From Gemmatimonadota bacterium (GTDB taxonomy: Bacteria > Gemmatimonadota > Gemmatimonadetes > Gemmatimonadales > GWC2-71-9), in contig JAZKBR010000004.1 in NCBI GenBank assembly GCA_040388535.1, positions 463,699 to 527,698 on the forward strand: 64,000 nt of DNA, read 5' to 3'. Both the position numbers and the translations under genes were made by a program. Below the pieces are notes generated by a model. That model saw nothing but the letters and a program-made list of their open reading frames with translations, ran no database searches and was not told the origin of the DNA. Of the stretch, positions 3,102-52,024 are shown piece by piece. The first letter of the stretch is position 1. Each line of letters opens with the position of its first letter.

Positions 3102-3110
3102 CAACAGGGT

Positions 3111-3262
3111 GATGGATGACAGAAGGATGATGGATGACAGATGACAGATGATGGATGTGTGAAGGGCCGGCTTCCCAAAGAGGAGCCGGCCCTTCCAGTT
3201 TGTATCCATCATCCATCATCCATCATCCATCATCCATCATCCATCATCCGTCATCCGTCATC
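3111..3262. repeat. Nested palindromic intergenic element, copy A: heptad array - GC hairpin - inverted heptad array
   Basis: Left arm 3111-3157 is made of GATGGAT/GATGACA/GATGATG heptads. The core hairpin is at 3161-3195. Right arm 3204-3262 is (ATCCATC)5(ATCCGTC)2, the reverse complement of the left-arm heptads. It fills the gap between the convergent anti-sigma and actF genes. Confidence 0.8.
3161..3195. terminator. Bidirectional terminator hairpin (core of element A)
   Basis: Perfect 11-bp stem GAAGGGCCGGC / GCCGGCCCTTC with a 13-nt loop, between two convergent stop codons (3101 and 3273). Confidence 0.6.
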
Positions 3263-3272
3263 TACTTGTCAG

Positions 3273-7006: not shown

Positions 7007-7007
7007 C

Positions 7008-10058: not shown

Positions 10059-10059
10059 A

Positions 10060-10635: not shown

Positions 10636-10720
10636 ATCTGCTGACCGCCGAAGAGGATCCGAGACAGGGTTGCAACTCCTTGCCGGGCGCAAAGCTAGCC
10701 GAAGTCAGAGGTCCGTTCAA

Positions 10721-12441: not shown

Positions 12442-12479
12442 CCGGGCTCCGGGTGTGTGAGACGCTAGAATGTACGGCC

Positions 12480-26201: not shown

Positions 26202-27122
26202 ATGTCGGCTTCGAACACGATTGCGATCACCGGCGCCTCCGGGATGATTGGCCAGGCCCTCACGGCGGCGCTGCAGGCGGACGGGCGGACGATCCTCCCC
26301 ATCTCGCGGCACGCGATCCCCGGCGGCACGCGCTGGGACCCGGGTCGCGGAATTCTGGATACCGGCGCACTCGAAGGAGTCGACGCCATCATCCATCTCG
26401 CGGGGGAGAGCATCGCCGCCGGCCGCTGGACGCCAGCGCGCAAGACCCTGCTCCGCGAGTCCCGGCTCACGCCGACCCGCTTGCTCGCGGAGACGATCGG
26501 GCGGCTCACTCAGCCACCCCGAGTCCTCATCTCGGCATCGGCAGTAGGGATCTACGGGAACCGTGGCGATGAACGGCTCGACGAGCGCGCCACCTTTGGC
26601 ACCGACTTCCTGGCGCGCCTCGGGCAGGAGTGGGAGGCCGCCGCGGACCCGGCGCGGGCAGTTGGGGTGCGTGTCGTGCACCCGCGCTTCGGTGTGGTCC
26701 TCTCGACGACCGGCGGCGCACTGAAGAAACTGCTGCCCCCGTTCAGGCTTGGCCTGGGGGGTCCGGTCGGCGATGGCAAGCAGTGGCTCGCGTGGATTGC
26801 CATTTCGGATGTGGTGGGAGTGGTGCGGCACCTGTTGGCGAACGCCGACCTGGCTGGCCCCGTGAACGCGGTCGCCCCGGGAGAGGTGACTAATGGAGAG
26901 TTCGGTCGGATCCTCGGCCGGGTGCTGCACCGGCCGGCGGTGTTGCCGCTCCCCGCATTCGCGCTGAAGCTGGCCTTCGGGGAGATGGCCGAGGCGACGT
27001 TACTGGCGAGCCAGCGCGTCGTCCCGGCCGTGCTTTCGCAAAGCGGCTATCAGTGGAGTTTTCCGGAGCTCGAGCCTGCGCTGCAGGCGATCGTGCATCC
27101 GACGGCGGTCGATCGGCGTTAG
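26202..27122 (+). CDS. TIGR01777/YfcH-like NAD-dependent epimerase-family protein (SDR fold plus DUF1731-type C-terminus)
   Basis: IAITGASGMIGQAL Rossmann motif. Length of 306 aa and a C-terminal VVPAVLSQSGYQWSFPELEPAL tail are typical of the family. Start at MSASNT within ORF 25920-27122. Confidence 0.8.
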   Translation: MSASNTIAITGASGMIGQALTAALQADGRTILPISRHAIPGGTRWDPGRGILDTGALEGVDAIIHLAGESIAAGRWTPARKTLLRESRLTPTRLLAETIGRLTQPPRVLISASAVGIYGNRGDERLDERATFGTDFLARLGQEWEAAADPARAVGVRVVHPRFGVVLSTTGGALKKLLPPFRLGLGGPVGDGKQWLAWIAISDVVGVVRHLLANADLAGPVNAVAPGEVTNGEFGRILGRVLHRPAVLPLPAFALKLAFGEMAEATLLASQRVVPAVLSQSGYQWSFPELEPALQAIVHPTAVDRR

Positions 27123-27880
27123 AGCTGCTCGTCGCGGGCAGGACGCTTCCGGCGCTTCACGCCGGCGCCGGCGAGCCCGAGCAGACCGGTGGCCAGCAGC
27201 GACATTGTCGCCGGCTCCGGCACGATTTCAGTGGCACCGACTGGCGTATCGCCCGTCAACCAGAGGCCGTCTGTCTGGCCATCGCCCTTGAGGGTGACCT
27301 TGAGCGTATTGGAGCCGGCGAGGAGGCCGGGCAGCGAGAAGTTCGCGGTGCAGAGCGGGTAATCACTGCTGTTGAAAATGGCGTCCCCGTCGCGACAGAA
27401 GCCGAAGTGATTGCCAATGGCGCGGTCAGTGGATGACGTCAGCGCGGTCGTCGGATTGAACGTGGTGCCGTTGAGCACGAATCCGGTGAGGATGTTATCC
27501 CAGCCGGCGCTCAGGAGCAGGTTCCCGGCAAAGAGCGAGTTGAAGGTGACTTCAAACGTGTAGAAGTACCGGAGCCCGGCATCGGTGTCCTTGTTGTAGT
27601 CGCCCACCCCACCGACTGCAGAGGAGGAGGGCCAGGCGCTGATCCACTTGGCGCCGGAGCCGACTTCATCCGGTTCCCAGACGCCACCAACCGCCGGAAC
27701 GACCCACGCTCCGTACGAGCCGCCCGAGTTGCCGCCTGGACCGTACGGCCCCGACGTCCAGGAGACCAGCCAGTTCGCGTCCTGCGTGCCGACGGCCGAG
27801 GTGCCCGTCTGGAAAGTCTGGGCCGCAAGCGGTGAAGCAATCAGGACCGAGATCAGGGCAACCGAAGAGATGTGACGCAC
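27119..27880 (-). CDS. PEP-CTERM-anchored secreted protein
   Basis: N-terminal signal peptide (VALISVLIASPLAAQT). C-terminal VPEPATMSLLATGLLGLAGAGVKRRKR (PEP motif, TM helix, basic tail). Confidence 0.75.
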   Translation of the reverse strand: MRHISSVALISVLIASPLAAQTFQTGTSAVGTQDANWLVSWTSGPYGPGGNSGGSYGAWVVPAVGGVWEPDEVGSGAKWISAWPSSSAVGGVGDYNKDTDAGLRYFYTFEVTFNSLFAGNLLLSAGWDNILTGFVLNGTTFNPTTALTSSTDRAIGNHFGFCRDGDAIFNSSDYPLCTANFSLPGLLAGSNTLKVTLKGDGQTDGLWLTGDTPVGATEIVPEPATMSLLATGLLGLAGAGVKRRKRPARDEQL

Positions 27881-27905
27881 GCGCGACTCCTTGGATCAGT
27901 GGGTA

Positions 27906-28673
27906 TCAGACGGTCGAGCGACGGCGGCGAACCTTGCCGAGCACACCTGCAAGGCCAGTACCGAAGAGCAGCATCGTGCTCGGCTCGGGTACGACTTCCT
28001 CGGTGTTCGCCGGCGGATCGTAGGCGATATTGAACATCATGTCCTGATAGTCCTTGTCCGAACCGCCACCTGCACCAGTGTAGATGTCTTCGATGCCGGC
28101 AATCCAGTTGCTGCCGGCATTCCCGGGAGGGGCGAAGCCGAAGAGCGCGAACTGATTGTCGAGCCCGGAGTAGGCGTAGTTGCCGTTCGTCAGCAGGACG
28201 TAGAGCCCCCAATTCCCGCCGAACGTGATGGGCGACCCTGGCAGACCACCGTTGAGGGAAGTCCGCAGGCTCGTGGACGCGTCGTAGTAACCCCAATCGG
28301 TATTGGCGCCGGCGATGTCGCCTCCGGCGAGATTGCCACTCAACAGCGAGAAGGAGTAGCTGCCCGCGCCGAAGAGGAACGCCTGAAAACCACCGCCCGC
28401 ACCCTCGAGGTACGTCGTCGGCGTCGGGCCACCATATGGCAGCCAGTTTCCGGGGCGCTGATTGGCGCAGCTCTTACCCGACGTTCCCGCGAGGCCGGTG
28501 ACCACGTAGCCGGAGTTGCAGTAGGTGCCATCGGCGGAGACGTTATCCCAGAATTGCTGGCCGGCGCTGACGTTGTTGGGCGACCCGATGGCGGTCCACG
28601 ACTGGGCGGTCATTGGTGACGCCAGAACGGCCAAAGCCGCCAAGCCATAGAATGATTCCTTGATCGAGCGCAT
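27906..28673 (-). CDS. PEP-CTERM-anchored secreted protein (second, non-identical)
   Basis: Signal peptide (LAALAVLASPMTAQS). C-terminal VVPEPSTMLLFGTGLAGVLGKVRRRR. The GGSDKDYQDMMFNI segment resembles DUF4114-type modules. Confidence 0.75.
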   Translation of the reverse strand: MRSIKESFYGLAALAVLASPMTAQSWTAIGSPNNVSAGQQFWDNVSADGTYCNSGYVVTGLAGTSGKSCANQRPGNWLPYGGPTPTTYLEGAGGGFQAFLFGAGSYSFSLLSGNLAGGDIAGANTDWGYYDASTSLRTSLNGGLPGSPITFGGNWGLYVLLTNGNYAYSGLDNQFALFGFAPPGNAGSNWIAGIEDIYTGAGGGSDKDYQDMMFNIAYDPPANTEEVVPEPSTMLLFGTGLAGVLGKVRRRRSTV

Positions 28674-29074: not shown

Positions 29075-30625
29075 ATGTCGATTCTACCGCGTCGTGGTCA
29101 CGTCCTCGGATTGATCTTCCTCCTTGCCGGATGCAGTTCCTCCGACATCGTCTATCGCGATCGAGCGCCATTCAATGCCGCGCCCGACGTCGCCAGCGGC
29201 CTCCTCGGCTATTACACCACCAGCACCAAACAGACGACTTGCGGCAATTGCCACTCCGGTCACCAGAAAGACTGGTCGACGACGCATCACGCCAAGGCGT
29301 ACTCCACCCTCGTCGCGAGCGGCAAGGCCAGCGCGACCTGCTATACCTGTCACACGCTGACCGGGAACGGCAACGGACTGGTAGGTAATGTCGGCTGGAA
29401 CATGACCCCCGACCCAGGCTATCAGGACGTGCAGTGCGAAAGTTGCCATGGCCCGGGCACCGAGCACGTCAAGCTGCCCGAGAACAAGGCGACCTGGCCG
29501 CTGGCGCGACTCTCGCTCACCAAGGCGAGCGCCAGTTGCGCGGCATGTCACACCGGCATCCACACGCCGTTCGCGGAAGAGTGGGCCAGCAGTGGCCACG
29601 CGAAGCTTGAGGCCCCGCCGCTCGCGAACACCACGTCGAACTGCAAGAATTGCCACGAGGGTCGCACGGCCCTGAAGGCGTGGGGTGTTTCGACCAACTA
29701 TTCCGAACGCGATTCGGCGAGCGTCAACATCGCGACGACTTGCGCGGTATGCCACAATCCACATGGCTCGTCCAACGAGCACCAGCTGCGGTATCCGATC
29801 AATACGCCGGATCCCGACCAGAACCTCTGCATGAAGTGTCACCTCAATCGTGGATCGCCCACGGTGTCGTCGAGTTCCCCGCACGGGGCCGCAGGCTACG
29901 TACTCCTTGGCATCGCGGGATATCGTCCGGCGGGAGTCTCGGTGGACACGCAGGCGGTGCTGTCGACGCACTCGAGTGAGGCGAATCCCAAGTTGTGCGC
30001 GGGCTGTCATGTCGTCGCCTTTGATGTGACCGACCCGGCCAGCGGTGCCACCGTCTTCCATTCGACCGGTCACTCGTTCCGGCCGATCCCCTGTGTCGAC
30101 GGGACGGGCAAGCCGACCGGCCTCACGGACTGCGCCTACACTCCGGCCGCACGGACGTTCAAGTCCTGCACCGCGTCTGGCTGCCATGGTTCTGCAGCGG
30201 TTGCCTCGCAACTCCTGAATACCCTGCGCTCGAGCCTCGCGATCATGTCCGACCAGATCTGGCTCGACCTCAACGGCAACAAGACCGTGGATGCGGCACC
30301 GACGGATGGCGGCTACCTCGCGATCATCAAGCGTGATCGGCCGACCGAACTCTCGACGGTTACCGTGATCACGCCGGCCAAGGGTGCGCTGTTCAACGTC
30401 AGTCTCTTCGGCGAGAATCGGAACGGTCACGGCGACGGCTCGTTTGGAGTGCACAATCCCGTCCTTGCCAGGGCCCTGCTGGCGGCGAATATCACTGAAC
30501 TCCGTGCGGCGTATGCGCTCCCTGCCCCGCCTGCCGCGGTCAATGCGGCCGTCCAGAAGGCGATCGGCGACGCCAAGGTGCGCTTCCCCGCCGCGATGCA
30601 GCAGTCGCTCTCGATGCAGAAGTAG
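29075..30625 (+). CDS. Multihaem c-type cytochrome lipoprotein (8 CXXCH + 1 CX4CH)
   Basis: Lipobox LIFLLAGCSS. Haem motifs CGNCH, CYTCH, CESCH, CAACH, CKNCH, CAVCH, CMKCH and CAGCH, plus CTASGCH. Cytochrome c554-like spacing (CH-x6-W-x2-S/T-x-HA). No CXXCK motif. Confidence 0.85.
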   Translation: MSILPRRGHVLGLIFLLAGCSSSDIVYRDRAPFNAAPDVASGLLGYYTTSTKQTTCGNCHSGHQKDWSTTHHAKAYSTLVASGKASATCYTCHTLTGNGNGLVGNVGWNMTPDPGYQDVQCESCHGPGTEHVKLPENKATWPLARLSLTKASASCAACHTGIHTPFAEEWASSGHAKLEAPPLANTTSNCKNCHEGRTALKAWGVSTNYSERDSASVNIATTCAVCHNPHGSSNEHQLRYPINTPDPDQNLCMKCHLNRGSPTVSSSSPHGAAGYVLLGIAGYRPAGVSVDTQAVLSTHSSEANPKLCAGCHVVAFDVTDPASGATVFHSTGHSFRPIPCVDGTGKPTGLTDCAYTPAARTFKSCTASGCHGSAAVASQLLNTLRSSLAIMSDQIWLDLNGNKTVDAAPTDGGYLAIIKRDRPTELSTVTVITPAKGALFNVSLFGENRNGHGDGSFGVHNPVLARALLAANITELRAAYALPAPPAAVNAAVQKAIGDAKVRFPAAMQQSLSMQK

Positions 30626-30737
30626 TGCTGCCGGTTTGACGATCACGCCCGTCATTCTCGCCCTTCAGCACCCCCGGGACACCGTGACAGGTGTCCCGGG
30701 GGGCTCGGCGTTTCAGGTCCACGATTCGCTCGGTGGA

Positions 30738-32675
30738 ATGGCGGGGGCGCTGCGCGACACCCTGGTGCCACCGCCGCTACCTGAAGGCGTTGCGCGCTTC
30801 GTCCGGATGATCTTCGCCGTGCCGCGCTGGATCCAGATCGGCGGCGTGGTGCTTGGGGCAGTGGTTGCGATGGTATTGCTGACGCTGGCGTGGCGACATC
30901 GCACCGCAATCCTGCTGTGGATCCGGACCCGGAGTCGCCCGCTGCAGGTCACCTTTGCCGGCGGCGTCGCGGTCGTGTTGCTCGTCGCCGCATTTGCCGG
31001 CAAGACCAGTTGGGACTACATGCAGCACGACAACGGCTTCTGTACCGGCTGCCACGTGATGGAAAAGCCATTCGGCAAATTCCAGCAGACCGCCGGCAAG
31101 CATAGCGACCGGAAATGTCACGACTGCCACCAGCAGTCGATCTTTGCGAGCACGCGGCAACTGGTGCTCTGGGTGAGCAATCGTCCGACGGATATCGGCA
31201 AGCACGCGCCCGTGCCGAACTCCCGATGCGAAGGGTGCCACCAACTGATGCAGGGCAAGAAGGCCTGGGAGCACATCCGCAATCTGGCCGGTCACAAGGC
31301 CCACTTCGAGTCGGACTCGAGCGCGCTCAAGGATCTCCAGTGCGTGACCTGCCACGGCGCGGAGGTGCACCGCTTTCTCCCGTCGGCGCGGACCTGTCAG
31401 CAAAGTGGCTGCCATGTCAACCAGTCCATCAAGCTGGCTGGAATGAAGTCGCTCCCCGAGATCAACTGCGTGACCTGTCATGCATTTACCGCCGACCTGC
31501 CGGCGCTGGCCGATCGCGACTCCGCTCGCAAGGCGTTGGTACCGTCGGAGAAGCAGTGCCGCAGTTGTCACCAGATGGATGGCAAGCCGACGGGCTTCGT
31601 GCTGGCCAAGGATCCGCACAAGGGCAGCTGTGGGTCGTGTCACGACGTTCACGCCCACGCGCTCCCCATCGACGCGAAAGCGAGTTGCACGAAGTGCCAC
31701 ACCGATCTGGCGAGCAGTGCCTTCCACAACGGCAAGAACCATCAGCGCGTGAAGACGGAGTGCCTGACCTGTCACAATCCGCACGCTGCCTCGGTCGATG
31801 CCTCCGATTGTGTGGGTTGCCACACCTCGGTGCGAGCGCGCGGCAAGTTCCGGCCACCGTTGCCGTTCGACACCAATGCAGTGCTCAAGCGGCGAGTCGC
31901 GATGAACCCGACGCCGATGCCGTTGCACGCCACGGTAGAGAGCAGCAGTCAAGGAGAGGTCGACGTGCCCGAGCATCGCGGCAAGGGCGATGCGCTGCCG
32001 GAGGATCCTCCGCCCGGAAGTGGACCCCGGGCGGAGACATCCGCCCGCGCCACGCTTGACTCCTTTCCGCACGCCCGCCACACCTCGCTTCCCTGCCTCA
32101 CCTGCCATACCGTCAACCGCGCAAAGAACGGCCTTGTCTTCGAGGCGCCGCGGGGCTGTGACCTCTGTCACCATCAATCCGCCATGGCCGGCAAGGTGGC
32201 CGCGAGCGACTGTCTTCGCTGCCACGCCGCCGCGAAAATCGCGGTCGCGAAACCCACGACGGTGGCAGTGCGCGTCGGGACTCGCGCTCCGGTCCCGCGG
32301 CAGGTGCTCTTCCGGCACGAGATCCACCAGAAGCTTGACTGCGCCGCCTGCCACCAGGCACCGAACATCGTCCCGCCAGACAGCGTCCGGAGCTGCGTGG
32401 CCTGCCACGACCAGCACCACGCCGAGCAACGCGATTGCAGCTCGTGCCACAGTCGCGCCGAAAACCGGACGGCGCACACCCGGGCCACACACACGGGGTG
32501 TGACGCCTGCCACACGGCGACCCGCATCGCGATACTCACGCCATCACGCACCTTCTGTCTCACCTGCCATCAACCACAACGGAATCACCAGCCTGCGGCC
32601 GAGTGCTCGAGTTGTCATTTCCTTGAATCACCAGCCGACTATCGCAAGCACCTGATGCGGGGGAAGGCCGGGTGA
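30738..32675 (+). CDS. Membrane-anchored NapC/NirT-headed giant multihaem cytochrome (19 CXXCH + 1 CX4CH)
   Basis: Two N-terminal hydrophobic helices (IQIGGVVLGAVVAMVLLTLAW; VTFAGGVAVVLLVAAFAG). NapC/NirT-type head follows (FCTGCHVMEKPF...KCHDCH...CEGCH...CVTCH), then 15 more CXXCH. A Pro/Gly-rich linker (EDPPPGSGP) splits it into two modules. Start taken at MAGALRD. Confidence 0.85.
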   Translation: MAGALRDTLVPPPLPEGVARFVRMIFAVPRWIQIGGVVLGAVVAMVLLTLAWRHRTAILLWIRTRSRPLQVTFAGGVAVVLLVAAFAGKTSWDYMQHDNGFCTGCHVMEKPFGKFQQTAGKHSDRKCHDCHQQSIFASTRQLVLWVSNRPTDIGKHAPVPNSRCEGCHQLMQGKKAWEHIRNLAGHKAHFESDSSALKDLQCVTCHGAEVHRFLPSARTCQQSGCHVNQSIKLAGMKSLPEINCVTCHAFTADLPALADRDSARKALVPSEKQCRSCHQMDGKPTGFVLAKDPHKGSCGSCHDVHAHALPIDAKASCTKCHTDLASSAFHNGKNHQRVKTECLTCHNPHAASVDASDCVGCHTSVRARGKFRPPLPFDTNAVLKRRVAMNPTPMPLHATVESSSQGEVDVPEHRGKGDALPEDPPPGSGPRAETSARATLDSFPHARHTSLPCLTCHTVNRAKNGLVFEAPRGCDLCHHQSAMAGKVAASDCLRCHAAAKIAVAKPTTVAVRVGTRAPVPRQVLFRHEIHQKLDCAACHQAPNIVPPDSVRSCVACHDQHHAEQRDCSSCHSRAENRTAHTRATHTGCDACHTATRIAILTPSRTFCLTCHQPQRNHQPAAECSSCHFLESPADYRKHLMRGKAG

Positions 32676-34162
32676 AGCGTCCGGCCATTGCCGTGTGCTG
32701 CCTACTCATCGGGGCCTTGACGACGACACCCCTCGTCGCGCAGGGGTGGCGCCTCCGCTTCGACGCCTATGCCCAGCGGGTCTCGTTCCGGGGCGTCACG
32801 CCCGACAGCGTCACAGCGGGGGAAGTCATCCTCTCCGACAGTGCCGGGCCGGTGACGCGCGACGGGTTCGCGGCGACCTGCGGCTTCGACTCGTGGTGCC
32901 GCTTCTATCGACCGGGCGACATCCATACTGGCATTCCGGCGAGTGTCGGCGTCGACCTCGCGATGTGGGGGCTCGGCATTCCCGGTCTGAGTGTGCGAGT
33001 GAGTGGCCGCAGCATGGGCGATCTCAGCGGTGACCGGCTCTGGCCTGGTACTGCGCCGGCACTCCGCCTCGTCGAGGGCTACGCCGAATACCTGAGAGGC
33101 GGACTCACGGCGCGTGCGGGCCGGCTGTTGCAGCTCGGCCGTCTCGCTGCGACTGGCTCCAGCGGCCTCGACGGAATTCGCAGCACCATTCGCACCAGTA
33201 AAGACCGCCTCGAGTTCGGCGCCTACGCCGGGTGGGGGCTCGCTCGTGGTGCCATCCTGCCGGTCACCTCGCCCGCGGTCAACCCGCTGCTCGACTTCCA
33301 GCCCGGCAATCGCCAGATCGTTGTGGGCGTCACCACTGGCGTCCATCTGGCCAGTTTCGATGCCGAGGCCGAGTACCGGCGCGAACTCGATCCGGCGACC
33401 AACTACATCGTGGCCGAGCGCGCCGCGCTCAGCGCGCAGTACCGCCCGCTGTCGCGCGTCCGCATTGTGACCGGTGCCGACTATGACATCGCACAGGGGC
33501 GGCTGGGCTCGGCCGATGCCACCATCGGGTACAACGGCAAGCGGCTGTGGGCGACGCTCGGCGCCCGACACTATCGACCCTTCTTCGATCTCTGGACAGT
33601 CTGGGGAGTCTTCAGCGCGGTGCCATATGATGGCGCGACGGCGACCGTCGCTGTGACGCCGATTGCTCCGCTGCAGCTTCGGGGACGGGCGGAGTGGTTC
33701 AAGTACCACGATGCCGAGGCGAATACCCCGGCCGTGCCGCTGAAGGATCGCGGGTATCGCTGGGAGCTGGAAGCCACCCTCACGCCGTTGAAGGCGTGGA
33801 CCGTGGAAGTCGGTGGTCACGGTGAACTCCAGCCGGGCGCGTCCTCGAGCGGGATCGATGGGCGGGTGGCCTGGCGCGTGCGCGAGCGACTCGACCTTTC
33901 CGTCAATGGCGGATCACTGGAACGTCCCCTCGAACTGCGATTTCAGGACGCTGGCGTGACCTGGGCCGGTGCCGCGGCGGACTATCGGTTCACGGATCGC
34001 TGGCGCGCGGGGATTTCGGCCGATCAATACTGGGAATCGCGCGACCGTCCAGACGCGCTCTCGTTCGACTGGAATCAGTGGCGTCTCAGCGCGCGCCTCA
34101 GCGTGACATTGAAGTCGTCCGCCGATCGCTGGCAGCTTCCCCCCGCGAGCCGTACCCCGTGA
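32672..34162 (+). CDS. Haem-free secreted protein, putative outer-membrane beta-barrel (porin-like partner of the cytochromes)
   Basis: Signal peptide MKRPAIAVCCLLIGALTTTPLVAQG. No CXXCH motif. Long runs of alternating hydrophobic/polar residues rich in G, Y, R and D (e.g. AEYRRELDPATNYIVAERAALSAQYRPLSRVRIVTGADYDIAQGRLGSADATIGYNG). GTGA overlaps with both flanking cytochrome genes. The function is inferred, not recognised by motif. Confidence 0.5.
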   Translation: MKRPAIAVCCLLIGALTTTPLVAQGWRLRFDAYAQRVSFRGVTPDSVTAGEVILSDSAGPVTRDGFAATCGFDSWCRFYRPGDIHTGIPASVGVDLAMWGLGIPGLSVRVSGRSMGDLSGDRLWPGTAPALRLVEGYAEYLRGGLTARAGRLLQLGRLAATGSSGLDGIRSTIRTSKDRLEFGAYAGWGLARGAILPVTSPAVNPLLDFQPGNRQIVVGVTTGVHLASFDAEAEYRRELDPATNYIVAERAALSAQYRPLSRVRIVTGADYDIAQGRLGSADATIGYNGKRLWATLGARHYRPFFDLWTVWGVFSAVPYDGATATVAVTPIAPLQLRGRAEWFKYHDAEANTPAVPLKDRGYRWELEATLTPLKAWTVEVGGHGELQPGASSSGIDGRVAWRVRERLDLSVNGGSLERPLELRFQDAGVTWAGAAADYRFTDRWRAGISADQYWESRDRPDALSFDWNQWRLSARLSVTLKSSADRWQLPPASRTP

Positions 34163-35616
34163 TCCGTCGCCTCGGATTGTTGTTCGCGGCGGCAGTCACG
34201 CTGTTCACGACGCCGGGCGTCGCCCAGCAGCGTGCCGAGCGGTTCGATCATACCCGGCACGCCAGGCTCTTCGTGAGCTGCGCGCTCTGCCATGCCGGTA
34301 TCGATGCAGCAGACGCCGCCATCTTCCCGCCGTCAACAAGTTGCGTCAGCTGTCACAACGGCGCAGTCCAGCCCCGAGTCGAGTGGCAGCCGCGTAGCGT
34401 GCCGCGCGTATCGAATCTCCGCTTCGACCATCGAGCGCACTCAGCAGCGCGCCGGAACCGCGGCGATACCACCTCCACTTGTTCTGATTGTCACGCCCCG
34501 CCCGCGAGCGGGTGGATGCAGGTACGAGCCCCGGTCGCCCCGCAATGCGTGAGCTGTCACACCGCCGGTGGAGGCGATCATCTCACCCTGCCCGATACGG
34601 CGTGCGCGACCTGCCACCTGCCGCTGGCACAGGCTCGCGCCCTGACCCGCGAACGCATCAGCGCCTTCCCGGCTCCGCCCTCGCACCAGCTGGCCAACTT
34701 CGTCACGTCGTCGGGACATGGTGCGCTGGCGAAGCGCACCACGGGAGCAAACCGCGTGGCGCAGAGCTGTGCCACCTGCCACGCGCGCGACTTCTGTGCG
34801 TCGTGCCACGTGAATGCTTCGGAGCTTGGGGCCATCCAGGCGCTGCTGCCAGACCCGCGCTCACTGCTCGCCCCCCACGTGCTGAAGGCGCCGGCGTCGC
34901 ACGCCGCGACCGATTTCGAGACCCGTCACGGCAAGCTCGCAGGCACCAACGCGGCCACGTGTCGGAGCTGCCACACGCAGGAGAGCTGCGCGACCTGTCA
35001 CTCGGGGGCGATGCCCGCAGCAGCACGGGCACTCCTCGCTGCGGCGCCGGGCCGGGCTGCGGGAGCGCAGACCGTGGCCAGGATGCCCGCGAGTCACACA
35101 CCCACGTGGCGCAAGGCCGGACACGGGCCGGTCGCAGCCGCGTCGAACCGCAGTTGTAGCTCGTGCCATCAACGCCAGGAGTGCCTGACCTGTCACGTGC
35201 CCAACACCGCACGGCGCGGGGCGTTTCACCCGGCGGGCTACCTCACCAGGCATCCGGCGGATGGCTACTCGCGCGCCAGTTCCTGCGCCGATTGCCACAA
35301 TACGGGTGAGTTCTGCCAGAGCTGCCACAATCAGGCCGGCGTGACAGCCAAACGCACCTTGCTCGGCGCCTCAGGGTATCACGACAACAATCGGCAGTTC
35401 TTCCTCGGGCACGGCAAGGCAGCGCGCCAGGGGCTGGAGAGCTGTGTCTCCTGCCACGTCGAGCGCGACTGCCTCACCTGTCACTCGGTAGTAGGAGGGC
35501 GCGGCTTCAACCCGCACGGCCCCGGGTTCAATGCCGAACTGATGCTTCGCAAGAATCCGCAGCTCTGCACTGCGTGTCATGGCACGGCGATTCCGCGGCG
35601 ACGGGCCACGCCCTGA
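34159..35616 (+). CDS. Secreted 16-haem c-type cytochrome (cytochrome c3/c7-like paired-CXXCH arrays)
   Basis: Signal peptide VIRRLGLLFAAAVTLFTTPGVAQQ. 16 CXXCH motifs, five of them as CXXCH-x4/5-CXXCH pairs (e.g. CATCHARDFCASCH). GTG start overlaps the upstream stop. Confidence 0.85.
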   Translation: MIRRLGLLFAAAVTLFTTPGVAQQRAERFDHTRHARLFVSCALCHAGIDAADAAIFPPSTSCVSCHNGAVQPRVEWQPRSVPRVSNLRFDHRAHSAARRNRGDTTSTCSDCHAPPASGWMQVRAPVAPQCVSCHTAGGGDHLTLPDTACATCHLPLAQARALTRERISAFPAPPSHQLANFVTSSGHGALAKRTTGANRVAQSCATCHARDFCASCHVNASELGAIQALLPDPRSLLAPHVLKAPASHAATDFETRHGKLAGTNAATCRSCHTQESCATCHSGAMPAAARALLAAAPGRAAGAQTVARMPASHTPTWRKAGHGPVAAASNRSCSSCHQRQECLTCHVPNTARRGAFHPAGYLTRHPADGYSRASSCADCHNTGEFCQSCHNQAGVTAKRTLLGASGYHDNNRQFFLGHGKAARQGLESCVSCHVERDCLTCHSVVGGRGFNPHGPGFNAELMLRKNPQLCTACHGTAIPRRRATP

Positions 35617-35632: not shown

Positions 35633-36721
<1,089 letters not shown>

Positions 36722-36735
36722 CGAGATGCCCTTCC

Positions 36736-38088
36736 TTGTCTGAGACTATCCGCTTTCCCGCCGGTTTCCTCTGGGGTGCCGCCACCTCGGCCTATCAGGT
36801 CGAAGGCTCGCCACTCGCCGATGGCGCTGGCCCCAGCAACTGGCACCGCTTCGTGCACGAGCCCGGCCGGATCGACAACGGCGATAGCGGTGACATTGCC
36901 TGCGATCACTACCACCGCTGGGCCGACGATGTGGTACTGATGCGCGGGCTCGGACTCAACGCCTACCGCTTCAGCGTCTCCTGGAGCCGGATTCTCCCCA
37001 GCGGGCGCGGGTCGATCAACAAACCCGGACTCGACTTCTATGACCGTCTGGTCGATCGCCTGCTTCAGTATGGTATCGCACCGTCAGTCACCCTCTACCA
37101 CTGGGATCTTCCCGCTGCGCTCGACGACCTCGGCGGCTGGCTCAACCGCGATGTGGCCGGCTGGTTTGCCGACTACGCCGGAGTTGTCGTGCGCGCGCTC
37201 GGCGATCGAGTGCCGATGTGGACGACCCTGAACGAGCCGTGGGTCGTCTCCGATGCCGGATACCTGCACGGTGTTCATGCCCCCGGCCACCGCAGCACCG
37301 CCGGGACCCCGCTGGTCAGTCACAACCTGCTGCGGGCGCACGGCGCCGGGATGCAGGCGATTCGTGCCGAAGGCGGCAAGTCGGCCGGACTGGTCGTAAA
37401 CCTTGAACCGAAGTACCCCGCCACGGACCGCGCTGCTGATGTCGCCGCCACTCGGCGCGCCGACGCCTATATGAATCGCCAGTTTCTCGACCCGGTATTC
37501 CTCGGAAGTTACCCCGAAGAACTTGCCGAGATTTTTGGCGTCGACTGGCCCCGCTTTCCGGACGAGGACTTCGCACTCATCCAGCAACCGCTCGACTTTC
37601 TTGGCGTCAACTACTACACCAGGAACGTGGTCTGCGATGATCCGTCGGCGCTCCCCATTCGCGCCGGCCGCGTCCGCCAGAATGCAGCACTGCACACGAC
37701 ACTCGACTGGGAAGTCTACCCGGCGGCACTCACCGATGTACTGCTCTGGATCACGGAGCGCTATCCATCACTACCATTGTATATCACCGAGAACGGTGCG
37801 GCCTTCCTGGATACCGACCCCGCCGACGCCGAACTCGTGCATGATCCGCTGCGCGTCGACTATTTCCGCTCTCATCTGATGGCCGTGCACGATGCGATCT
37901 ACCAGGGCGCCGATGTTCGCGGCTACTTCGCCTGGTCACTGCTCGACAACTTCGAGTGGAGCGCCGGCTTCGCCAAGACCTTCGGCCTCTTCCGCGTGGA
38001 CAAGCCGAGCCAGCGCCGAATTCCCAAAGCCAGTTCTCGCTTCTACACGGATGTGATTCGTTCTCACGGCGAAGCGCTCGGTCGGTAG
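36736..38088 (+). CDS. GH1 beta-glucosidase
   Basis: FPAGFLWGAATSAYQVEG, acid/base TLNEPW, nucleophile YITENGAA. TTG start only 14 nt from the divergent ATPase start. Confidence 0.9.
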   Translation: MSETIRFPAGFLWGAATSAYQVEGSPLADGAGPSNWHRFVHEPGRIDNGDSGDIACDHYHRWADDVVLMRGLGLNAYRFSVSWSRILPSGRGSINKPGLDFYDRLVDRLLQYGIAPSVTLYHWDLPAALDDLGGWLNRDVAGWFADYAGVVVRALGDRVPMWTTLNEPWVVSDAGYLHGVHAPGHRSTAGTPLVSHNLLRAHGAGMQAIRAEGGKSAGLVVNLEPKYPATDRAADVAATRRADAYMNRQFLDPVFLGSYPEELAEIFGVDWPRFPDEDFALIQQPLDFLGVNYYTRNVVCDDPSALPIRAGRVRQNAALHTTLDWEVYPAALTDVLLWITERYPSLPLYITENGAAFLDTDPADAELVHDPLRVDYFRSHLMAVHDAIYQGADVRGYFAWSLLDNFEWSAGFAKTFGLFRVDKPSQRRIPKASSRFYTDVIRSHGEALGR

Positions 38089-41000
38089 CGGGTCCCAACG
38101 TCATCGCCCAGGTCGATCTCGACCGGATGCTCACGACCGTCGCGCACGAGGTCGATGATGACTGCACCATCGGTCACCCGTGTCGGTGATGTAGTGGATT
38201 GCACCGTTGTCGACCCGGCAGACCGCCTCACGACGATGCGGTAGCGCGTGCCCTCGCCCGGGAGCCGATACGTCACCGTGAATCCGGGCCAATTGCCCGG
38301 GATGCAGGGCCGCAGCACCAGCATCTTGCCGTCGACCGTCGTCACACCCAGCAGTGATTCGAAGGCGACCCGGAACATCCACCCCGCCGAACCCGTGTAC
38401 CACGTCCAGCCGCCGCGACCGGTATGCGGCGCCTCGCCGTAGACATCGGCCGCCACGACATACGGTTCCACCTGGTAGGTCGCGATGGCCTCGACCGAGC
38501 CGCCGCGGGTGACCGGGCTGAGCATTTCGAAGAGGTGTACTGCCCGCTCGCGTCGACCCGCCTCTGCCAATGCACGAACCGCCCAGAGCGCCGCGTGAGT
38601 GTATTGCCCACCATTCTCACGGACGCCAGGCAGATACCCCTTGATGTAGCCGGGGTCGTGCGGCGTCTTGTCGAAGGGCGGGGTCAACAGGCGGATGATG
38701 CCGGCCCGCTCATCGACCAGTCGCAGCTCCATCGCATCGAGCGCTGTGGCGGCCCGCTCTGGCGAGGCCACACCCGCAAGTACCGACCATGCCTGCGCGA
38801 TCGCATCGATCTGGCATTCGTCACTCGACGCGGATCCGATCGGCGCACCATCATCGTAGTAGGCGCGACGATACCAGCCGCCATCCCACCCACCGTCATT
38901 GAGCGCCACGTGCAGCGTCCGCATCCGTTCACGGTACCGCTCGGCGCGTTCAACCTCACCCCGCGCAACCACGGTGGGGAGGAAGCGCTCGAGAATCAGG
39001 TAGAGGAAGAAGCCCATCCAGACCGACTCGCCGCGGCCGAGTCGTCCGACGCGATTCATGCCGTCGTTCCAGTCACCGGTGCCGATGAACGGGAGGTTGT
39101 GGACCCCGCCAGCGAGAGACCGATCGAGCGCCCGACAGCAATGTTCGTAGACGGATCCCGAGGTGCCCGAATCCGTTGGTGCCAGGAAGGCCTCGTCTTC
39201 CCCTTCATGCAGCGCGCACGCAGTGAGAAAGCGGGCCCGCTCATCATAGACCGACGAATCACCCGTGGTGTCGACGTAGTATTGCGTCAGCAGCGGCAGC
39301 CAGAGGAGGTCATCGGCAAACCGGGTGCGAATGCCACGCCCCGCCGGAGGATGCCACCAGTGCATCACGTCGCCCTCGACGAACTGATTGGCGGCGTGCA
39401 GCACGATCTGCTCGCGAGTGAGATGCGGCGCGTGGTAGACGAGCGAGGCCGCGTCCTGGAGCTGGTCACGATAGCCGAAGGCACCTCCCGACTGATACAT
39501 CGCGGAGCGGGCCCAGATGCGGCAACTCAGGTTCTGGTACGCCAGCCAGCCATTGACCATCAAGTCGATCGCCGGCACCGGCGTCTCGATCTGCACGGCA
39601 CCCAGCCGTTCCCGCCAGGCCGCCTGCACGACGTCGAGCTCCGCCTCGATCGCATCGGGTGACCCGAACCGGGCAATGATTTCCAGCGCTGCCGCGCGCG
39701 ACGGCGATTGTCCGAGAAGCATCGACCATTCGACGGTGGCACCCGGCGCTACGTCGGCGGTGACGCGAAACGCCGCGCACGGATCGAGGCCGGGACCAGT
39801 GCGTCCGTCGAGCGGCAGGTCCCGGCGGATCGCGTCGGGCGCGGCTGCACTGCCGTAGCGCCCAAGGAAGGTCGCACGATCACCGGTGAACTCGACCGGA
39901 GCGATCGACTCACCATTGATGGCGGCGAAGGCAACCGCGCTCCCGAAATCCTGGCTCGCCGCGTTCCGCGCGAGCAACACGCGACCGGCCCCGGCCGACT
40001 CCGTGACCGTGGTGGCAGCCGTCGCCGATCGCACGCCGCCGAGGACCCATTCGCCGAACCAGGCGAGGGCCAGGGAGCGACTCTCGGTCCCGCGATTGGT
40101 AACCCGCACTCGCACAATTTTCACCGGAAGTTCATCCGCGACGAACGCGACGACCTCCTGTACCAGATCACTGGAGAGATGATCCCACTTCGTGTACCCG
40201 AAGCCGTGCCTGGTCTCATATGCACCGTTACCAGGAACGGGCGCCGGCGTGGGTGACCAGTAGACTCCGTTGCTACGGTCGACGAGATAGAGCGCCTCGC
40301 CGGCCGGGTCGCTGACGGGGTCGTTGAACCATGGGGTGAGCCGGTTCTCCCGGCTGTTGCCGACCCAGGTGAAGCCGAGCCCGGTCTCCGATGCCACGAA
40401 GCCGACGTTCGGGTTGGCCACGACGTTGGTCCAGGGAAGCGGCGGGAGTCGAAGGCCATCTGCCGTGCGATCGATCCGGATGACATACTCGTTTCCAGCA
40501 GTATTGAAGCCGCCGAAGCCGTTCGGAAATTGCAGCCCATCGCCAGACGCGGCGACCACCTCACCCCCAGCAGCGGGGAGCACCGTAGGCGGACGTTCGC
40601 GTGCCAGCATCTCGAGCGAATCAATGATCCCTTCAGTGGTTGCGCCGCTATGATCGACGGGCCGGGCCGCGGCATCGCGCAGCAGCTGCAGGACTTCGTC
40701 GCGAGTGTGGCCCGCGGCGAGAATCCCCACCAGCTGAATCGATGCGCCCGCAGGAATGCTGAAGCGGCGGCGCACCGCGAAGAGCGGGTCCAGCACATTG
40801 CCAGTGGTCCCGGAGAGCGAGCTGGTGGCGGTCAGGGCGACCGGATTGGCGAGCGACCGACCGCGACCAATAAAGCGCGCGCGATCGGTTTCGAATTCCG
40901 GTGCGCCAAGAGTCACCGACGCCGGGTCAACCAGGGCATGGCCGAGAAAGAGGGTCGGATCTTCGGGGCTGCGCTGACGACGACGCGCGAGCAATCCCGA

Positions 41001-41468
41001 GAACTCAGGAAGTGATTCAGTCTGAACAAACAGCTTCGAGAATGCGGGGTGGCCGGCGTCGGCACCTGCCACATTGAGGACGACTTCCAGACAGGTGGTC
41101 AGTTCGAGGTGCCGTGCCACCTTCCCCATGTTGTGGATGGTGTAGCTGCGCTGCTCGAAATTCCCCGCCGCGCCAACGGAGACCTCGGTGCGAACCTCGA
41201 TCCCCTCATCGTGGCGAACGATGCGCACCAGTCCTGGGGCGAGGCTGACGCGATACCAGCCGGGTCGCTGGGGAGCAGGCTGCACTCCCGCCGACCAGAA
41301 GTGACCGCTCTCGACATCGCGCAGGTAGGCGAAGAACCCTTCGGCATCACGGGTGTCGTCACCCGACCAACGGGTAAGCTCGATCTCGCCAAGTCGTGAA
41401 TAGCCGGCGCCGGCCGAGGAAATCCCGAGGTGATATTCACCGTTGGATAGCAGGTGCTTCTGGGTCAT
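38064..41468 (-). CDS. GH94 phosphorylase of the NdvB/1,2-beta-oligoglucan phosphorylase type
   Basis: 1134 aa. N-terminus LSNGEYHLGISSAGAGYSRLGEIELTRWSGDDTRDAEGFFAYLRDVESGHFWSAG matches the phosphorylase part of cyclic beta-1,2-glucan synthases. Catalytic region GTGDWNDGMN. Start ATG overlaps the upstream stop (ATGA). Confidence 0.8.
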   Translation of the reverse strand: MTQKHLLSNGEYHLGISSAGAGYSRLGEIELTRWSGDDTRDAEGFFAYLRDVESGHFWSAGVQPAPQRPGWYRVSLAPGLVRIVRHDEGIEVRTEVSVGAAGNFEQRSYTIHNMGKVARHLELTTCLEVVLNVAGADAGHPAFSKLFVQTESLPEFSGLLARRRQRSPEDPTLFLGHALVDPASVTLGAPEFETDRARFIGRGRSLANPVALTATSSLSGTTGNVLDPLFAVRRRFSIPAGASIQLVGILAAGHTRDEVLQLLRDAAARPVDHSGATTEGIIDSLEMLARERPPTVLPAAGGEVVAASGDGLQFPNGFGGFNTAGNEYVIRIDRTADGLRLPPLPWTNVVANPNVGFVASETGLGFTWVGNSRENRLTPWFNDPVSDPAGEALYLVDRSNGVYWSPTPAPVPGNGAYETRHGFGYTKWDHLSSDLVQEVVAFVADELPVKIVRVRVTNRGTESRSLALAWFGEWVLGGVRSATAATTVTESAGAGRVLLARNAASQDFGSAVAFAAINGESIAPVEFTGDRATFLGRYGSAAAPDAIRRDLPLDGRTGPGLDPCAAFRVTADVAPGATVEWSMLLGQSPSRAAALEIIARFGSPDAIEAELDVVQAAWRERLGAVQIETPVPAIDLMVNGWLAYQNLSCRIWARSAMYQSGGAFGYRDQLQDAASLVYHAPHLTREQIVLHAANQFVEGDVMHWWHPPAGRGIRTRFADDLLWLPLLTQYYVDTTGDSSVYDERARFLTACALHEGEDEAFLAPTDSGTSGSVYEHCCRALDRSLAGGVHNLPFIGTGDWNDGMNRVGRLGRGESVWMGFFLYLILERFLPTVVARGEVERAERYRERMRTLHVALNDGGWDGGWYRRAYYDDGAPIGSASSDECQIDAIAQAWSVLAGVASPERAATALDAMELRLVDERAGIIRLLTPPFDKTPHDPGYIKGYLPGVRENGGQYTHAALWAVRALAEAGRRERAVHLFEMLSPVTRGGSVEAIATYQVEPYVVAADVYGEAPHTGRGGWTWYTGSAGWMFRVAFESLLGVTTVDGKMLVLRPCIPGNWPGFTVTYRLPGEGTRYRIVVRRSAGSTTVQSTTSPTRVTDGAVIIDLVRDGREHPVEIDLGDDVGTRYRPSASP

Positions 41469-44400: not shown

Positions 44401-44590
44401 CTCCGCCGGTGAAGCCGAAGTCCAGCCTCATCGCTCGGCCTCGACGTCCCACATCGCCGTGGAGAGTGAGTGCCACGCCATCGGCCGGGTGGGCGCTCCA
44501 GCCTTCGATCCGGTCGAAGGCATCGAGCACCTGCGCGGTGTCCCCCCGCAAAGGCACCAGCAGCGAGGCGAGCAGCAAGGCGCTCATCAT
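41465..44590 (-). CDS. Secreted multidomain putative glycoside hydrolase: N-terminal beta-sandwich, F5/8 type C (discoidin) domain and (alpha/alpha)6 GH15-like catalytic domain
   Basis: Signal peptide MMSALLLASLLVPLRG. Discoidin-like AIDGNGITVWRAG...FGAVSLVWE. GH15-like SYERSWIRDGALTSTALLRFGH...YQYPDGKIPC. Activity unknown. Confidence 0.6.
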   Translation of the reverse strand: MMSALLLASLLVPLRGDTAQVLDAFDRIEGWSAHPADGVALTLHGDVGRRGRAMRLDFGFTGGGYAIARRALALPLHDNYAFTFWIKGSAAPNTLEFKLIDASGENVWWYTERDRHFSGAWEKITIRKRQIAFAWGPKGGGELREVASLELVITAGSGGGKGSVWFDDLAIAPLPDSGPYTLTPAITATSSEAGHTASAAIDGNGITVWRAGRARASLTLDFLRSREFGAVSLVWEPEHAPVRLTLLASEDARRWHVVESRQRGRGLSDHFYLPDSDVRYLRLDVVAGSASRPVGLREWRIEPLESAASRNAFFKLVASDAARGTFPRYLSGEAAAWTVVGVNGARDEALLGEDGALEPGTGAFSIEPFLYLEGKLRSWNDAQRSASLAQGRLPIPTVSWRVGDATLDVTAFARGSATASSLIGRYRITNHGASPLRTTLYLAIRPFQVNPPWQFLGTPGGTSRIDSLRWDRSQVVVNGLREVRALTAGARFGAVPFARGDIVEYLRARALPVGTTVQDAFGAASGALSWPVNLAPGASTTVDIEVPFDRGFLPPLRAAGVDTALQQVTAGWAHSVDAASITLPGEGARITNSIASTIGYILVNRDSAALQPGSRSYERSWIRDGALTSTALLRFGHASEVRDFLLWYARYQYPDGKIPCCVDRRGADPVAEHDSHGEFIYLVMEYFRHTGDRALLAHLWPNVRAAVGYLDSLRRTHRTAEYRSGEQALYFGLLPPSISHEGYSAKAMHSYWDDFFALRGFKDATTMAALLGQTEDAHRLAASRDEFAADLYASIDGVMKARKIDFIPGAADLGDFDATSTTIALSPADELPRLPRAALERTFERYFANASARSVAGNAWVNYTPYELRTVGAMLRLGWKERALTMLDTFLADQEPTAWNQWPEVVWHDRTAPKFLGDLPHTWVGSDFLRSAADLFVYEREADSALIVGAGIRDAWLADSGVAVNRLSTWWGPLSYTAKHVGAATVVTIAAGVAVPPGGVLLHAPGSVRPTRALVNGAAVPISPDGTVTLRALPARIEFDQ

Positions 44591-51990: not shown

Positions 51991-52024
51991 ACAACCTCCC
52001 TCCAAGGTGGACTACGGTACTGCG

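Follow-up and report, generated by a model that had tools for sequence, protein, structure and literature searches.

Does a bacterium of the phylum Gemmatimonadota carry a route of its own by which electrons could leave the quinol pool, cross the whole cell envelope and reach the outside? The question is raised by four adjacent genes (here g1 to g4) at positions 29,075 to 35,616 of a 64,000-nucleotide stretch of contig JAZKBR010000004.1 (assembly GCA_040388535.1), to which we refer as the window. Three of these genes encode multihaem cytochromes and one a predicted outer-membrane barrel. We consider it fairly probable that the four genes form one operon and that this operon encodes a porin-cytochrome conduit spanning the whole envelope, with electrons flowing outward. 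By its architecture it belongs to the porin-cytochrome class, and it lies outside the Mtr, ImcH and PCC3/PCC4 families. The genes and their junctions are the following:

29075..30625, + strand: g1, nonahaem lipoprotein cytochrome of 516 amino acids (8 CXXCH and 1 CX4CH)
30636..32675, + strand: g2 in its favoured long form, membrane-anchored 20-haem cytochrome of 679 amino acids (19 CXXCH and 1 CX4CH)
32672..32675, + strand: GTGA overlap of 4 nucleotides (nt) between the stop of g2 and the start of g3
32672..34162, + strand: g3, predicted outer-membrane beta-barrel of 496 amino acids, with no haem motif and four Cys
34159..34162, + strand: GTGA overlap of 4 nt between the stop of g3 and the start of g4
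34159..35616, + strand: g4, secreted 16-haem cytochrome of 485 amino acids (16 CXXCH)

The initial annotation of this DNA had given the four open reading frames (ORFs) with 9, 20, 0 and 16 haem motifs, the two GTGA overlaps and a total of about 45 haem sites. All of this was recovered: the three cytochromes hold 45 sites (9 in g1, 20 in g2 and 16 in g4), and none of the four frames contains an internal stop codon. After shuffling each protein the mean number of CXXCH was 0.04–0.18 and the maximum three, against the 8, 19 and 16 observed. One other ORF of the window has two or more CXXCH, a pentahaem ORF at 10063-10704 (-), and the G+C content is about 65% along the whole window. Both g2 and g4 have 30–32 residues per haem (30.3 in g4); the value for MtrA, about 33, has been cited as the mark of a haem wire (PMC5566968).

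The arrangement is shared by many relatives. A scan of one genome per GTDB species gave 430 species with a relative of the g3 barrel, and the best 80 of these loci were examined, to which the counts of loci given below refer. All 80 come from metagenome-assembled genomes (MAGs), and all belong to the Gemmatimonadales save one that is labelled Bacillota; for the g3 protein of the window itself NCBI has a record with 100% identity, from a Gemmatimonadota MAG. Nearly all of the loci have the order g1-g2-g3-g4, wherever enough DNA is present, so that the co-occurrence of the four genes, which had been put forward as a check, holds across the Gemmatimonadales loci examined. Overlaps of 4 nt of the form NTGA are kept between g2 and g3 in 67 of 76 loci and between g3 and g4 in 77 of 80, which bears out the translational coupling of g2, g3 and g4 claimed earlier. 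The MAG labelled Bacillota (L056, contig JBLMWC010000189.1) has the full four-gene cluster, with 42–53% identity to the window; that label most probably comes from an error of binning or labelling and not from a transfer to a monoderm.

A profile search of 1.84 billion representative proteins extended the barrel family to 491 relatives, including a more distant full-length tier whose named members come from Longimicrobiales, Gemmatimonas and Candidatus Eisenbacteria. The three loci of this tier that were inspected (L087, L090 and L091) all sit in multihaem cytochrome clusters. L087 has a g1-like gene, the barrel and a 10-haem g4-like protein; L090 has a cytochrome b, a lipoprotein multihaem cytochrome, a NapC-type cytochrome with 20 motifs (17 CXXCH and 3 CX4CH), the barrel and a 16-haem protein; and the arrangement of L091 is similar to that of L090. 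In the loci inspected the distant barrels thus always have multihaem flanks and are followed by a g4-like protein with 10 or 16 haems. Often a cytochrome b of the HydC/FdnI or bc type is present as another quinol module, and the position of g2 is taken by a classical single-helix NapC-type multihaem cytochrome. Five of the loci contain an expanded version of the cluster (L084, which is the same as L060, at 1132-12987; L052; L053; L067; L081). After the g1-like gene of L084 come a 153-residue membrane protein, a bc-type cytochrome b (PF00033) and three multihaem cytochromes with 9, 22 and 11 haem motifs, of which the one with 22 is NapC-type and has one helix; the cluster ends with a HydC/FdnI-like cytochrome b, the barrel and the 16-haem protein. 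Judged by this gene content, the function of g2 appears to have been split and duplicated in the expanded loci.

The second gene is the putative entry point of electrons. It had been started at ATG 30738, a choice that we have revised, since a TTG at 30636, only 10 nt past the stop of g1, is the more likely start. The short form and the features of the N-terminal part are these:

30738..32675, + strand: short form of g2 from ATG 30738, 645 amino acids
30828..31001, + strand: two hydrophobic helices of g2, at about residues 65-86 and 103-122 of the long form (Kyte-Doolittle scan)
30939..31133, + strand: NapC/NirT/NrfH-type head of g2, comprising the second transmembrane helix, haem 1 in FCTGCHVM (CXXCHxM) and haem 2

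In the clade of the window nearly every locus has a start codon 99–108 nt upstream of the position of ATG 30738, in most close relatives none is present at that position itself or just behind it, and the protein block D-S/T-L-x-x-A-A-G-x-x-R-D-T-L that straddles it is kept in relatives. Gene callers in three assemblies start the g2 orthologue 11–24 nt after the g1 stop, which gives proteins of 672–679 residues. From this comparison g2 probably begins at TTG 30636; the start is graded as probable and not as certain because a few more distant loci begin g2 at the equivalent of ATG 30738. With that start all four genes are tightly packed.

The two N-terminal helices and the NapC/NirT-type head that had been assigned to g2 were found again by several approaches. 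The second helix runs directly into haem 1, reading AAFAGKTSWDYMQHDNGFCTGCHVM; the head has four CXXCH within about 105 residues, and 16 further haems come after it. A profile of the head matches the structure of NrfH (2j7a_C) with an expectation value (E) of 2.6e-6, aligning the helix and haems 1-2, and g2 itself matches the NCBIfam NrfH model over positions 3-133 of 138 with E 4.6e-6, at 26.7 bits under a cut-off of 134. The Pfam family PF03264 (Cytochrom_NNT) is matched by 9 of 16 relatives of g2 (best E 3.9e-7), and the variant homologue of g2 in L084 has a confident precomputed match to it. Outside the haem motifs 21 His and 2 Met are conserved, for 20 haems. By these sequence comparisons the head is a quinol dehydrogenase of the NapC/NirT/NrfH type. 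It has the likeness of NrfH, CymA and NapC in that a transmembrane helix is followed by the CXXCHxM of haem 1 and then by three haems; however, those proteins have about 160–200 residues, whereas g2 has 679, with 16 more haems, an extra helix and a tail of about 64 residues. This tail (residues 1-64 of the long form, 30636-30830) is conserved, has no signal peptide and precedes the two helices, which are separated by an Arg-rich loop, RHRTAILLWIRTRSRP. The positive-inside rule and the periplasmic attachment of haem would place both the tail and the haem domain in the periplasm. This is an unusual topology, and the tail must follow it because the haem domain must be periplasmic; alternatively, the first hydrophobic stretch is something other than a simple span of the membrane.

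For g3, proposed from the start as a beta-barrel, an AlphaFold2 model was obtained from an alignment of 43 homologues. It is all-beta, with a predicted local distance difference test score (pLDDT) of 79.5 and a predicted template modelling score (pTM) of 0.71. After a putative signal peptide (about residues 1-23), the list of strands, read against the sequence, amounts to about 22 (26-40, 89-99 and so on to 469-481). The model has short periplasmic turns, long loops on the presumed outside and no plug domain. In a Foldseek comparison with the PDB the model had 345 matches at E <= 0.001, and every one of the 50 listed is an outer-membrane barrel, in agreement with the proposal. The best of them by query-normalised template modelling score (TMq) were the 24-strand usher FimD (0.49), OprC (0.47) and 22-strand TonB-dependent receptors (0.45–0.47), and MtrB (6r2q_B) was among the listed matches with 0.42. 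Receptors with 22 strands house a plug domain of about 150 residues, so that the lumen of g3 should not be too narrow for a haem wire. A soluble protein or too narrow a barrel had been named as findings that would speak against a conduit; what is predicted is a barrel of about 22 strands, the strand number of the plug-holding receptors.

By sequence g3 is isolated. The protein of the window has no Pfam or NCBIfam match at E up to 1; the generic family OMP_b-brl is weakly matched by 8 of the 43 relatives, and MtrB_PioB (Pfam PF11854, TIGR03509) by none of the 43 nor by g3 itself. As a profile search of the PDB sequences found nothing, MtrB included, the kinship of g3 is drawn from predicted structure only. 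As modelled, g3 is a large plug-less outer-membrane barrel without a known sequence family. Its most conserved regions are not the strands but two loops (190-214 and 302-318) and the C-terminal tail (482-496), a distribution that suggests a specific protein partner at the lumen or rim, and these loops and the tail are candidate contact sites for a cytochrome. The two loops contain P-V-T-S-P-A-V-N-P-L-x-D-F-Q-P and Y-R-P-F-F-D-L-W-T-V-W-G-V-F-S-P-V-P-Y, and are modelled with low confidence; the tail after the last strand contains D-R-W-x-L-P-P-A, and the usual C-terminal aromatic residue of outer-membrane proteins is lacking. The first loop, of 48 residues (41-88), holds an invariant pair, Cys70/Cys76.

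Directly beside the barrel lies g4, with a putative signal peptide (about residues 1-22) and the 16 CXXCH that had been counted before; all of its 32 Cys lie inside these motifs. The first five haems have a c3/c7-type layout and are followed by repeated CXXCH-x4/5-CXXCH pairs. Matches of the g4 profile in the PDB cover the N-terminal 160 residues only, with HmcA (2e84_A, E 5e-11) and ActA of the Alternative Complex III (ACIII; 6lod_A, E 1.7e-9), and 15 His outside the motifs are conserved for 16 haems. We take g4 as the partner inserted into the barrel because it adjoins the barrel in every variant of the cluster, has an ordinary signal peptide and has ten haems, like MtrA, in L087. By analogy with MtrA, g4 would then occupy the lumen of g3.

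The fourth component is the lipoprotein cytochrome g1, whose N-terminus reads MSILPRRGHVLGLIFLLAGC and includes the following signal:

29123..29134, + strand: lipobox L17-A18-G19-C20 of g1, with Ser at +2, read from the sequence

The lipoprotein signal attributed to g1 stands, as Cys20 is invariant in 39 relatives and conserved at 90% or more in 51 locus-derived homologues. Pfam Cytochrome_C554 matches g1 at 33.7 bits (cut-off 20.8), indicating a c554-like N-terminal module. In a search of the PDB sequences with the family profile the best matches were OmhA (6qvm_A, E 6.6e-13) and OcwA (6i5b_A, E 1.8e-12), followed by MtrA (6r2q_A, E 2.8e-8) and cytochrome c554 (E 1.5e-5); the nitrite and hydroxylamine enzymes, octahaem nitrite reductase (ONR) and hydroxylamine oxidoreductase (HAO), matched weakly (E 4e-4 to 0.05). 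In Thermincola potens OcwA is a nonahaem terminal reductase at the cell surface, which combines a tetrahaem module of the c554 type with a pentahaem NrfA-like module that has a helical bundle (PMC6703420). Its match to g1 is in collinear pieces from haem 1 through a C-terminal helix motif, D-x-S-x-G-V-H-N, and g1 shares with it nine haem motifs in about 520 residues, the c554-like module above the cut-off and the C-terminal helices. Nine His outside the motifs are conserved in g1, for nine haems. The structural model of g1 is poor (pLDDT 59), below 50 in the haem-rich N-terminal half and 85-97 in the C-terminal helices. From the profiles, g1 is a distant relative of OcwA and of OmhA of Carboxydothermus ferrireducens, Gram-positive cell-surface terminal reductases, and the place given to it at first, as the lipoprotein cytochrome of a conduit, is in keeping with nearest solved relatives that are extracellular terminal reductases. 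There are differences: g1 has one CX4CH, its identity to OcwA is low and distal His-His motifs were not seen as conserved, and OcwA and OmhA belong to monoderm hosts and have no porin partner, whereas g1 is a lipoprotein in a diderm.

The genes that flank the operon vary between loci. Clustering of the ORFs gave as the commonest immediate neighbour a zinc-ribbon membrane protein with a tail resembling tetratricopeptide repeats (TPR), in 21 loci, and glycerol kinase in 15. CcmH-like and CcmE-like genes recur upstream in 10–11 loci (for example L038 2775-4055 and L073 4881-5411), which fits the demand for 45 haems. Hydrogenase genes, including HycI-like ORFs, are found in about 8 of the 80 loci. 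In L001 (1-6151) and L085 (1105-6306) a complete membrane-bound uptake [NiFe] hydrogenase, with small and large subunits, cytochrome b, HycI and HypA/B/F, is divergent from g1; this set is not in the window, and its position hints, as far as gene order can, that H2 oxidation and the export of electrons may be regulated together. Among the flanking genes of the loci examined no Mo, Cu or sirohaem reductase recurs, so that a constant attachment to a reductase of nitrogen or sulfur oxyanions, which would have spoken for another function, is not what these clusters have. The claim that the locus has no catalytic subunit stands for Mo, Cu and sirohaem reductases; it is weakened by g1, because the superfamily of OcwA, c554 and NrfA includes enzymes.

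Put together, these elements would work as follows. In the inner membrane the head of g2 would take electrons from quinol, and the 16 haems behind it would form a wire into the periplasm. The wire of g4 would receive the electrons from g2 while threading g3 as MtrA threads MtrB, and g1 would dock at the barrel and hand them to an extracellular or cell-surface acceptor, for which Fe(III) or Mn(IV) minerals, humic substances, electrodes and partner cells are candidates. As the ten haems of MtrA span about 80–100 Å (PMC5566968), the 20 and 16 haems of g2 and g4 could bridge the periplasm and the outer membrane without soluble carriers. The outward direction is favoured because the characterised relatives of g1 are reductases and because of the hydrogenase neighbourhood. 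We infer the occupant of the barrel, the outward orientation of g1, the direction of flow and the identity of the acceptors.

The logic is that of MtrCAB with CymA, i.e., a NapC/NirT-type quinol dehydrogenase, a wire in a barrel and an outer lipoprotein cytochrome. A parallel to MtrCAB, to the Geobacter porin-cytochrome (Pcc) systems and to MtoAB, with differing haem counts and gene order, had already been drawn; the architecture is indeed shared, and by the family models the operon lies outside the Mtr families. With g3 outside the MtrB_PioB family, its likeness to MtrB is one of general fold. The solved structure of MtrB has 26 strands, against about 22 in g3. From sequence, 28 strands had been predicted for MtrB (PMC4245776). 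The wire of MtrA has 10 haems and that of g4 has 16, and the model of decahaem MtrA/DmsE (TIGR03508, cut-off 192 bits) scores 49.3 bits with g1, 20.8 with g4 and 14.8 with g2; none of the NCBIfam decahaem models reaches its cut-off for any of these three. Unlike CymA, the quinol dehydrogenase here carries 16 extra haems and its gene belongs to the operon itself, which, in contrast to the Mtr system, encodes no soluble periplasmic shuttle; the outer cytochrome is OcwA-like and not MtrC/OmcA-like.

The Geobacter-type systems (OmaB-OmbB-OmcB) combine a porin of 18–22 strands, a periplasmic cytochrome with 5–14 haems and a lipoprotein cytochrome that often has CX3-15CH motifs (PMC4245776), and we have compared them with the operon through this published description. 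The about 22 strands of g3 fall within that range and the CX4CH of g1 is such an atypical motif, but the 16 haems of g4 are outside 5–14, the gene order differs and the operon includes a quinol dehydrogenase with 20 haems. The sole match of g1 to a Geobacter-related model, the NCBIfam GSU2203 family, is weak (49.5 bits, cut-off 325). In Ignavibacterium album, which like Gemmatimonadota belongs to the Fibrobacteres-Chlorobi-Bacteroidetes (FCB) group, the periplasmic partner of the Pcc system has 14 haems. PCC3 and PCC4, the porin-cytochrome clusters predicted by bioinformatics in Fe(II) oxidisers, have very haem-rich wires (the median for the periplasmic partner is 21 haems) and a redox module in the inner membrane, and are marked by an inner-membrane protein of about 300 residues with five helices and two WX3HX13H motifs (PMC5566968). 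Their hosts are mostly Proteobacteria, and PCC3 porins are mostly many-stranded (up to 42). We have rejected this identity, as the operon consists of g1 to g4 only and the defining five-helix protein is absent.

Another inner-membrane multihaem cytochrome, ImcH, resembles g2 in its NapC/NirT-like region and in having more than one N-terminal helix. In homologues of ImcH the helices number three, the motif next to the membrane is CX3CH and 5–9 CXXCH are present in about 450–520 residues (PMC6295460). This identity was rejected as well, since g2 has two helices, a CXXCH next to the membrane, no CX3CH and 20 haems. From Gemmatimonadetes two homologues of ImcH have been reported, and these are other proteins, of 475–476 residues. 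The clusters DFE_0448-0451 and DFE_0461-0465 of Desulfovibrio ferrophilus, considered since FeGenie reports such matches in Gemmatimonadota, were discarded because they contain NHL beta-propeller proteins and no barrel (PMC5815863). As for prior reports, a horizontally acquired MtrCAB has been found in a single Gemmatimonadetes MAG (PMC8805035), scattered FeGenie matches in marine Gemmatimonadota (PMC11316326) and porin-cytochrome clusters in MAGs in generic surveys (PMC13264449), and none of these reports describes this cluster. The statement that no system of extracellular electron transfer had been characterised in the lineage therefore needs qualifying: genes for it have already been predicted there (PMC8805035, PMC11316326), although none of them is the cluster described here.

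Several points weigh against an outward conduit. Cultured Gemmatimonadota are mostly aerobes, and no cultured organism is found among the named relatives or the 80 loci listed. Within the listed Foldseek matches g3 resembles many kinds of outer-membrane barrel about equally, Foldseek with the poor model of g1 (pLDDT 59) gave no structural match below E = 1, and the g2 of the window reaches 19.8–19.9 bits with PF03264, under the cut-off of 24.1. The location of g1 at the outer surface is an assumption by analogy, as a lipoprotein of a diderm may face the periplasm instead. Moreover, the superfamily of g1 (c554, NrfA, ONR, HAO, MccA) is largely catalytic, and in OcwA two haems have open coordination despite His enough for all nine (PMC6703420). 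For this reason the count of conserved His cannot exclude catalysis by g1, and we have downgraded conserved second His ligands as proof of pure electron transfer.

These points lead to the other explanations. Since the hardware is reversible in principle, the same proteins could carry electrons inward, from Fe(II), Mn(II), reduced minerals, humics or partner cells to the quinone pool or periplasmic carriers, and would then resemble MtoAB/PioAB and the predicted PCC3 and PCC4; we regard this as unlikely, though it is the alternative to be taken most seriously. Many Gemmatimonadota are aerobes or N2O reducers that could use such electrons, and ACIII-like genes are also present in the window. Proteins of the NapC/NirT type such as CymA are known from Fe(III) reducers as well as from Fe(II) oxidisers and are thought to be bidirectional (PMC6295460), and direction is not assignable from sequence for porin-cytochrome clusters (PMC5566968, PMC11316326). 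However, OcwA and OmhA, the nearest characterised relatives of g1, are terminal reductases; systems of the MtoAB or PioAB type usually have no outer lipoprotein cytochrome (PMC4245776); and in about 8 of the 80 loci the cluster is back-to-back with an uptake hydrogenase, which by feeding the quinone pool fits the need for an electron outlet.

A catalytic role of g1 would make it, together with g2, a periplasmic quinol:substrate oxidoreductase like NrfHA, with g1 lipid-anchored and facing the periplasm, nitrite, hydroxylamine, sulfite or tetrathionate as substrates, g3 as a substrate porin and g4 as an electron store or relay. The NrfH-type head of g2, the c554/NrfA/octahaem superfamily of g1, its weak matches to octahaem nitrite reductase and HAO and the fact that OcwA reduces nitrite and turns over hydroxylamine, if slowly (PMC6703420), all agree with this. 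Yet the CXXCK motif is absent from g1, no conserved distal His-His motif was seen in its consensus when read by eye, and OcwA and OmhA are matched better than the enzymes by 8–11 orders of magnitude. A tetrahaem NrfH suffices for an enzyme, so that 32 extra wire haems and a 22-strand barrel coupled to g4 are hard to explain, and the pair of barrel and g4-like protein persists where g2 is replaced or missing. Such a role seems quite improbable to us. Still further from what we expect is that the cytochromes are a periplasmic electron buffer (capacitor) or redox network and the barrel an unrelated general porin, an idea to which we give very little credence. Electron storage has been proposed elsewhere for high haem counts (PMC11495043) and g3 has no sequence link to MtrB/PioB, but the 4-nt coupling of the barrel to cytochromes on both sides is kept in about 90% or more of the loci, its family is found only inside multihaem clusters, the distant relatives inspected included, and its most conserved residues are in loops, suggesting a specific protein partner. 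The outward conduit thus stays the reading that we favour.

The junction of g1 and g2 has a feature of its own, established by folding and pattern search; the inverted-repeat scan did not list it:

30671..30703, + strand: GC-rich hairpin with a perfect stem of 13 base pairs (bp), just past the stop of g1, in what is probably the 5' end of g2

Its minimum free energy is -36.4 kcal/mol in 50 nt, while in random windows of this sequence the best hairpin has a median of -19 kcal/mol and the strongest reaches -26.6. Hairpins of -23 to -37 kcal/mol, mostly -29 to -37, are present at the same place in 17 relatives (among them L001, L003, L004, L008, L011, L012, L014-L016, L021, L031 and L035), with stems of 11–18 bp and mostly of the form CCCCCG...CGGGGG, a pattern found at one place in the window. 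When 13 relatives are aligned, compensatory double changes are seen in 7 of the 13 pairs of the stem. Within the clade of the window the hairpin lies in the first 23 codons or so of g2. It is also found after the g1-like gene in loci where the next gene is a different one (L084 2739-2780, L053 about 2741-2776), so that it seems tied to the 3' end of g1. An Rfam scan of the operon, hairpin included, found no family match. A terminator isolating g1 was rejected, as there is no U-tract, the consensus scan found no terminator at the junction and the hairpin is inside the probable frame of g2; nor did that scan find a promoter-like site there. From its position and conservation, the hairpin may set the ratio of g1 to g2-g4 by partial termination or attenuation, stabilisation of the transcript or control of g2 translation.

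Next to one of the distant barrel clusters, directly upstream of that of L090 (3890-6295), an ORF of 801 residues combines a sigma-54 response regulator, with receiver, AAA+ and HTH_8 domains, and a stretch resembling a signal anchor, followed by 11 CXXCH and a C-terminal helix. This ORF is known from a single long-read contig and is either a true regulator-cytochrome fusion, which would make it a redox-wired transcription factor, or the product of an assembly error by which a stop codon was lost.

In the window the operon has PEP-CTERM proteins upstream and an ATP-binding cassette (ABC) ATPase downstream. The former are two paralogous secreted proteins of about 254 residues (27119-28673, -) and are not kept beside the operon in relatives. 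The latter, of the MalK type, belongs to a beta-glucan utilisation neighbourhood (35633-44590) together with a protein of 1205 residues from the phosphorylase family GH94 (glycoside hydrolase family 94), a protein of 1041 residues with an F5/8 type C domain and a possible GH1 beta-glucosidase, identified by eye only. A probable ACIII operon (3273-10704, -) is separated from the operon of g1 to g4 by about 19 kb and is unlinked to it in relatives; its ActB-like protein of 1016 residues (7008-10058) has a molybdopterin-oxidoreductase fold and 4Fe-4S domains, with the pentahaem ORF already mentioned (10063-10704) just upstream and more ORFs downstream. There are also three genes of Ser/Thr protein kinases, at 14206-17966 (+) and 55582-58281 (+), two in tandem with overlapping ends and the third with TPR, and a large barrel resembling a TonB-dependent receptor (49051-52005, -).

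What the operon could mean goes beyond this one genome. We propose tentatively, and with slightly more doubt than belief, that it represents a porin-cytochrome family that has so far gone unrecognised, is native to Gemmatimonadota and has its relatives in Longimicrobiales and Candidatus Eisenbacteria. In it a lipoprotein OcwA-like reductase would be wired through a new 22-strand barrel and two long wires to the quinol pool without a soluble shuttle. Such an operon escapes the Pfam and NCBIfam Mtr models that were tested because its barrel and cytochromes lie outside those families. It is of specialist interest and no conceptual surprise. If the conduit works as proposed, a NapC-type quinol dehydrogenase would be fused to a wire of such length that it could replace soluble periplasmic shuttles, a link would be made between the terminal reductases of Gram-positive bacteria and the porin-cytochrome systems of diderms, and environmental surveys would gain a specific marker gene in the g3 barrel family. 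In soil, Gemmatimonadota rank among the more abundant phyla, and their anaerobic energy metabolism is poorly known. If the proposal is true, hundreds of soil and sediment species of this phylum that are deemed ordinary aerobic heterotrophs could respire minerals, humics or electrodes, and in some lineages H2 might drive such respiration. A major lineage would thereby be added to the organisms that exchange electrons with minerals, which would affect models of iron, manganese and humic cycling in soils.

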